From Escherichia coli (GTDB lineage Bacteria > Pseudomonadota > Gammaproteobacteria > Enterobacterales > Enterobacteriaceae): DNA of 64,000 nucleotides. The first letter of the stretch is position 1. Each line of letters opens with the position of its first letter. Location of the stretch: assembly GCF_030384885.1 (NCBI RefSeq), contig NZ_CP128613.1. One strand, given 5' to 3'. The translations under genes and the position numbers were made by a program. Shown one piece after another: positions 18,861 through 18,898 of this stretch. A model generated the notes under the pieces. That model made no database searches. It saw nothing but the letters and a program-made list of their open reading frames with translations, and was not told the DNA's origin.

Positions 18861-18898
18861 AACTGTCGATACGTACAGTATAGGATTTTTATACAGTG
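18861..18898 (-). promoter_or_regulatory. Tandem LexA operators (SOS boxes) of ydjM
   Basis: Reverse complement of 18861..18880 is TACTGTACGTATCGACAGTT (CTGT-N8-ACAG); an adjacent second box CACTGTATAAAAATCCTATACTGTACG overlaps it. Confidence 0.6.

Follow-up and report, generated by a model that had tools for sequence, protein, structure and literature searches.

The 38 bp immediately upstream of ydjM raise the question of whether this gene is controlled from two LexA sites, as was proposed in a preliminary description made from the sequence, and of what each of the two sites might contribute. We conclude, with a probability of about 0.9, that positions 18861-18898 of the window (the whole 64,000-nucleotide stretch of Escherichia coli DNA analysed here) correspond to the tandem LexA operator already known for ydjM, an SOS gene of E. 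coli. Two sites are present, their scores as LexA sites are far above chance expectation, and they are conserved in register among Enterobacteriaceae and Erwiniaceae. The pair has already been published, is ordinary and strongly conserved, and is not new.

The region from 18200 to 19100 is 100% identical to that of strain 2013C-4282 and is found in 5,423 of 5,426 complete E. coli genomes; the annotation of the match places in it ydjM (named as a 'metal-dependent hydrolase') and hxpB. The ydjM product matches the Pfam family PF04307 (YdjM, inner membrane protein) with an E-value of 7e-36, and the ydjM ATG at 18846..18844 on the minus strand agrees with the RefSeq coding sequence. Directly 5' of ydjM the minus strand reads cgCACTGTATAAAAATCCTATACTGTACGTATCGACAGTTtagtgagttttatcATG, and both of the strings quoted in the preliminary description were located on that strand within 18861-18898. 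This 38-bp segment, read from 18898 to 18861, is composed of CACTGTATAAAAATCCTATA and TACTGTACGTATCGACAGTT and is exactly the two boxes together; the 20-mers have 2 nt (TA) in common and are 18 bp apart, centre to centre. The coordinates of these and the other features discussed are collected in Table 1. Elsewhere in this otherwise core chromosome, the pathotype-associated type III secretion effector gene espL1 lies between yniD and thrS (~24055-25953, minus strand), according to the identical reference genome.

Table 1. Features of the ydjM locus and the LexA sites of the window, with the heterology index (HI), the rank in the full-matrix scan, and the number of equally good sites expected by chance.
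Feature	Position	Strand	Sequence	HI	Rank	Expected by chance	Remarks
cho (ydjQ) LexA box	5760-5779	minus	CACTGGATAGATAACCAGCA	5.76	1		13 nt before the start codon of cho (5746); internal positive control
ydjM coding sequence	18256..18846	minus					196 aa; RefSeq annotation of the identical genome
Proximal LexA box	18880..18861	minus	TACTGTACGTATCGACAGTT	8.76	2	0.10	full CTGT-N8-ACAG core; 14 nt before the ydjM ATG
Distal LexA box	18898..18879	minus	CACTGTATAAAAATCCTATA	10.44	3	0.61	consensus left half, degenerate right half; 32 nt before the ydjM ATG; borderline when taken alone
Candidate -10	18882..18877	minus	TATACT				putative; straddles the junction of the boxes
Alternative -10	18893..18888	minus	TATAAA				
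Alternative -10	18898..18893	minus	CACTGT				17 nt downstream of GTTACA
Conserved block	18901..18926	minus	AAAGAGTTACACCGTCACCACTTCCG				just 5' of the distal box; possible -35/upstream promoter element or site of another regulator
Terminator-like hairpin	18976..19007	minus					directly after the hxpB stop codon; 14 pairs, 8 of them G-C

Heterology indices were calculated with a matrix of the Berg-von Hippel/Lewis type, rebuilt from 25 classical E. coli LexA operators, with ydjM excluded. The rebuilt matrix yields the textbook consensus TACTGTATATATATACAGTA and correlates with the published HI values (PMC11228462) at r = 0.90, or 0.91 in a leave-one-out comparison. All 63,981 positions of the window were then scored on both strands. 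The operator of cho ranks first and the two ydjM boxes rank second and third, and apart from these the 64 kb contain no strong LexA site. The known cho operator sequence is present in the window exactly, 13 nt 5' of cho, and the ydjM pair itself makes a clean positive control for a scan of this kind. A further match at 20407-20426 on the minus strand (CACTGGATAGATTATTAGCA) has the first 12 nt of the cho box, but it is located at the 3' end of yniA, is without CAG and has an HI of 13.1, and is probably a chance occurrence.

Rescaled to the published indices, the proximal box scores ~8.3-8.9 and the distal box ~9.6, each with an uncertainty of 1.2 either way. As calculated with this rebuilt matrix, the HI values of both boxes lie inside the LexA-binding range, for which the literature and the preliminary description set a limit of ~12.6-15; the latter had held that values above about 15 for both sites would speak against the operator, and neither box comes near this value. 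Tandem pairs of such sites, 15-25 bp apart, arose in none of 100 Markov-simulated windows. The bare CTGT-N8-ACAG core on its own is not significant (one is seen in the 64 kb versus 0.53 expected, and 39 of 100 shuffles contain at least one); since it occurs at chance frequency, it was dropped as evidence and full-matrix scoring was used instead.

The two boxes differ in their anatomy. Earlier, the proximal box had been called near-ideal, and this wording has to be given up. Its arms are perfect (TACTGTA...ACAGT), the G/C-containing spacer ACGTATCG holds all 9 of its penalty units, and with a published HI of 9.0 it belongs to the weaker third of the sites tabulated in the literature, which makes it a mid-to-weak site. 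A search of the window for the consensus with three or fewer mismatches gave no matches, so neither of the sites is near-ideal. The proximal box has the full 16-bp core CTG-N10-CAG, whereas the distal box has only the left half of it, with CTGT kept and CAG replaced by CTA. The distal penalty amounts to 1.8 units in the near-consensus left half and 8.6 units in the right half, where CCTA stands in the place of ACAG, and the box is without the AG of CAG that is invariant in 25 of 25 reference operators. In the HI formula, the penalty for an unseen base cannot exceed 3.9 units, so that the loss of an invariant base is under-penalised and the distal site is flattered. The distal box is best described as a consensus half-site next to a complete site, and the two copies of ACTGTA form a direct repeat with a spacing of 18 bp (CTGT...CTGT). 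The second element had been described as a longer CTGT...ACAG sequence; the 27-mer quoted for it contains no ACAG on that strand, and it is the 20-mer CACTGTATAAAAATCCTATA that forms the actual second site.

Of 5,422 E. coli genomes, 4,005 show at least 99% identity over the 101 bp that surround the operator. In the K-12-like and O157 alleles, differences are confined to a position 3 nt 5' of the distal box; this is the sole difference in a K-12-like allele whose boxes are identical to those described here. The present strain has C rather than T at 18901, a position that falls outside the boxes. Among EHEC lineages, substitutions in the LexA site of ydjM have been described (PMC3444427). E. 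coli NIPH17_0036 (NZ_AP024561.1), which alone among the 5,422 genomes has an identity of 90-95%, carries a natural 7-bp deletion inside the distal box (CACTGTATAAA/TACTGTACG; ~185-215 of its extracted locus), so that nature has supplied a mutant in which the contribution of this site could be tested. Some E. coli, such as NZ_CP173570.1, have a C-to-T change in the proximal spacer (TACTGTACGTATTGACAGTT) that gives the base of most other genera.

Conservation was followed in 80 ydjM loci, each from a distinct species of Enterobacteriaceae and with 85-99% protein identity. The proximal 20-mer has an HI of 12.6 or less in all 80 (median 6.85, with E. coli at the weak end), and the distal 20-mer has an HI of 12.6 or less in the same register in 77 (median 11.1); 77 of the 80 species have the ACTGTA left arm at a distance of exactly 18 bp from its proximal counterpart, and 65 of the loci have 14 nt between the proximal box and the ATG. 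Among the 73 distinct sequences, column conservation drops sharply right after the 3' end of the proximal box, with a dip next to the 5' end of the distal box, and the proximal box has invariant CTG/CAG arms around a variable spacer, which is the signature of LexA. The entire promoter region of ~90 nt is conserved among these 80 close relatives, so conservation alone is not specific to LexA, and for this reason seven more distant orthologues (66-85% protein identity) were added.

The proximal box is present in all seven of the more distant orthologues. Erwinia (66% protein identity), Shimwellia, Klebsiella and Paramixta have both boxes in the same register, and those of Erwinia are kept while the neighbouring bases have diverged. 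Pantoea has a 1-nt deletion, with a distal CTGG shifted by 1 nt, and Tenebrionibacter keeps the distal CTGT with altered flanks. The distal CTGT is lost in Citrobacter amalonaticus S646 (AGATGG), Intestinirhabdus alba (CCTGGC) and, among the seven more distant orthologues, Enterobacteriaceae ESL0689 (TCGG), and a 1-nt insertion affects the distal half-site of Leclercia adecarboxylata; the proximal box and TATACT are kept in each of these four and in Pantoea. From such changes it follows that the distal site is dispensable in some backgrounds. In two bacterial families, the two boxes keep a fixed spacing of 18 bp.

All of the plausible -10 hexamers lie within the 38-bp operator, whose boxes stop 14 and 32 nt short of the ATG. 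TATACT matches TATAAT at five of six positions, including A2 and T6, and it is invariant in the 80 plus 7 orthologous upstream regions, among them that of ESL0689 with its missing distal CTGT. Because of this invariance in all 87 sequences, TATACT is favoured over the other hexamers, and it may be the -10 of ydjM; judged from the sequence, we hold the odds on this assignment to be even. A consensus sigma-70 scan of 18700-19100 returned no promoters and no -35 partner for TATACT, so the overlap of operator and promoter is one that we infer. With TATACT as the -10, transcription would start near 18870, and the proximal and distal boxes would occupy ~-10 to +10 and ~-28 to -9, respectively. The right half of the distal box may then be degenerate because its positions 17-20 must spell the TATA of the -10 and not AGTA.

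A second conserved element stands just 5' of the distal box. In the 73 distinct sequences from the 80 loci, the columns of this block are as conserved as those of the LexA boxes, and its core, GTTAC-NN-CGTCA, is kept in the Erwiniaceae (Erwinia, Pantoea), where the neighbouring bases diverge. Both properties would suit a second factor that acts together with LexA at GTTAC-NN-CGTCAC (18921..18909), in which case the LexA operator would be half of the regulatory logic of ydjM. The lack of a good -35 for the invariant TATACT would fit an activator-dependent promoter, and ydjM is also up-regulated by TisB membrane stress. However, the GTTACA is placed 17 nt 5' of (C/T)ACTGT and may simply be a -35, and the TisB-dependent induction is equally explicable as SOS-mediated. 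Moreover, the three other matches to the block motif in the window are all intragenic (ydiY, pheS and menI) and a literature search for the motif gave no matches, so a regulon is unsupported. On this evidence we regard a second factor as doubtful. A compact composite can also be drawn from the sequence, with a -10 TATACT in the junction of the boxes, by which it would be explained that the distal box can never be a full palindrome, and with a second regulator on GTTAC-NN-CGTCAC (18909-18921); ydjM would then integrate the SOS response with another signal, such as membrane stress. We consider this arrangement unlikely.

The spacing of the conserved block, compared by eye with consensus sequences, fits none of the CRP, CpxR, GntR/LacI-family, OmpR or sigma-32 sites. 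Most genera have an extra TGTGAC to the left of the block, which E. coli is without. The terminator-like hairpin separates hxpB from the ydjM promoter region. It is included in ~75 extra nt (18930-19008, minus strand) that E. coli has between the hxpB stop codon and the conserved block, and that other genera are without; in these, the upstream gene ends just ~10-25 nt before the block, and in Klebsiella, Pantoea and others this gene encodes a short-chain dehydrogenase and is not hxpB.

The half-site character of the distal box raises a further alternative, namely that only the proximal box is functional and that the distal 'box' belongs to the promoter, with an A/T-rich spacer and a -10-like TATAAA/TATACT, and starts with CTGT by chance. 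The right half with CCTA instead of ACAG agrees with this, as does the expectation of ~0.6 chance sites of this quality per window; the conservation of the whole region means that conservation is not diagnostic for the distal box, which is absent or shifted in three of the 80 Enterobacteriaceae loci and in some of the more distant orthologues, and RegPrecise is said in PMC4576408 to hold a single ydjM site. Set against these points are the ACTGTA arm at exactly 18 bp in 77 of 80 species, and in Erwinia despite diverged upstream bases; the absence of such a tandem pair from all 100 simulations; the Salmonella study that independently calls two boxes (PMC8072944); and PMC4951493, which cites an experimental report of tandem LexA-binding sites at E. 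coli ydjM (Fernandez De Henestrosa 2000). A proximal box acting alone thus appears improbable to us. It is scarcely credible that the LexA-box matches are a chance A/T-rich, palindrome-like motif with no regulatory role, since this has in its favour the roughly chance frequency of the bare CTGT-N8-ACAG core in the window and against it the full-matrix rank and simulations, the distance of 14 nt to the start codon, conservation in at least 87 species, and the published regulon membership and induction data.

For the tandem operator, which is our preferred reading, the balance tilts towards a distal site that is functional through cooperative binding. A first LexA dimer would occupy the complete proximal box TACTGTACGTATCGACAGTT with moderate affinity, and a second would be placed on the abutting distal box, made up of the consensus half-site CACTGTAT and a degenerate half. 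Because the distal box has only one consensus half, a dimer probably needs contact with its proximal neighbour in order to occupy it, as in the strong-plus-weak tandem operators of colicin genes; the half-site nature of the box and the fixed 18-bp register suggest that the two dimers probably cooperate. The two dimers would cover ~38 bp including all of the candidate -10 elements, so that bound LexA would block RNA polymerase. Upon DNA damage, RecA-stimulated self-cleavage of LexA would free the promoter and lead to a few-fold induction of ydjM. De-repression through RecA-stimulated LexA cleavage is established SOS biology.

LexA binding and damage induction at ydjM are taken here from the literature. 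SOS-regulon tables have included the gene with its tandem LexA sites since 2000, ydjM is among the LexA-regulated genes in a 2019 review of the SOS response, and CACTGTATAAAAATCCTATA is listed as a second ydjM (b1728) site (PMC4576408). A re-analysis published in PNAS in 2024 (PMC11228462) gives ydjM an HI of 9.0 and inductions of 2.5-fold and 8.6-fold. Expression after ciprofloxacin rises by a log2 value of up to 2.6, induction by gamma irradiation was confirmed by qRT-PCR, and ydjM is also induced by replication inhibition and in biofilms. In Salmonella, ydjM is induced 2.1-fold with nalidixic acid, and a gfp fusion gave no detectable fluorescence (PMC8072944).

The preliminary description of tandem LexA sites directly 5' of ydjM is borne out by scoring, conservation and the literature alike, and that of ydjM as an SOS-inducible inner-membrane protein gene by the published regulon tables and induction data. 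The tight control that it had deduced from the presence of two sites fares less well, because the measured induction is modest (2.1-fold in Salmonella; 2.5-fold and 8.6-fold in E. coli) and the sole hint of tightness is the undetectable basal GFP fluorescence in Salmonella. Its statement on the function of YdjM still applies, as the literature continues to describe the protein as poorly characterised; YdjM is one of the few SOS gene products in this position. Two enzyme-prediction papers print 'YdjM' in error for YjdM, and they are irrelevant here. A gene of the YdjM family is LexA-regulated in Staphylococcus aureus too.

The operator described here lies at the same locus as the published E. 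coli ydjM (b1728) operator and has an identical distal 20-mer, with an HI of 8.8 in our calculation versus 9.0 as published. Salmonella enterica ydjM has the same geometry, with two boxes at 14 and 32 bp (HI 9.12 and 12.85; PMC8072944, Table 1), and the distal box is the weaker one in both species; the Salmonella-type proximal box TACTGTATGAATTGACAGTT is nearer to the consensus than that of E. coli (6.85 versus 8.76 with the rebuilt matrix). More than one LexA box per promoter is likewise found at lexA and recN (PMC4951493), and the boxes number three at recN and two at dinI (PMC8072944). At ydjM, one of the sites is only a half-site and shares 2 nt with its neighbour; at lexA, by contrast, each of the two sites is a complete palindrome and stands clear of the other. 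There is a likeness to the colicin operators as described in PMC4951493, in which a full and a weak site overlap at their ends and the consensus half of the weak site faces outward; at ydjM the overlap is 2 nt, the HI values are 8.8 and 10.4, and most of the distal penalty falls in the inner half. The colicin genes are lethal and plasmid-borne, whereas ydjM is a chromosomal SOS gene of the housekeeping type with modest induction.
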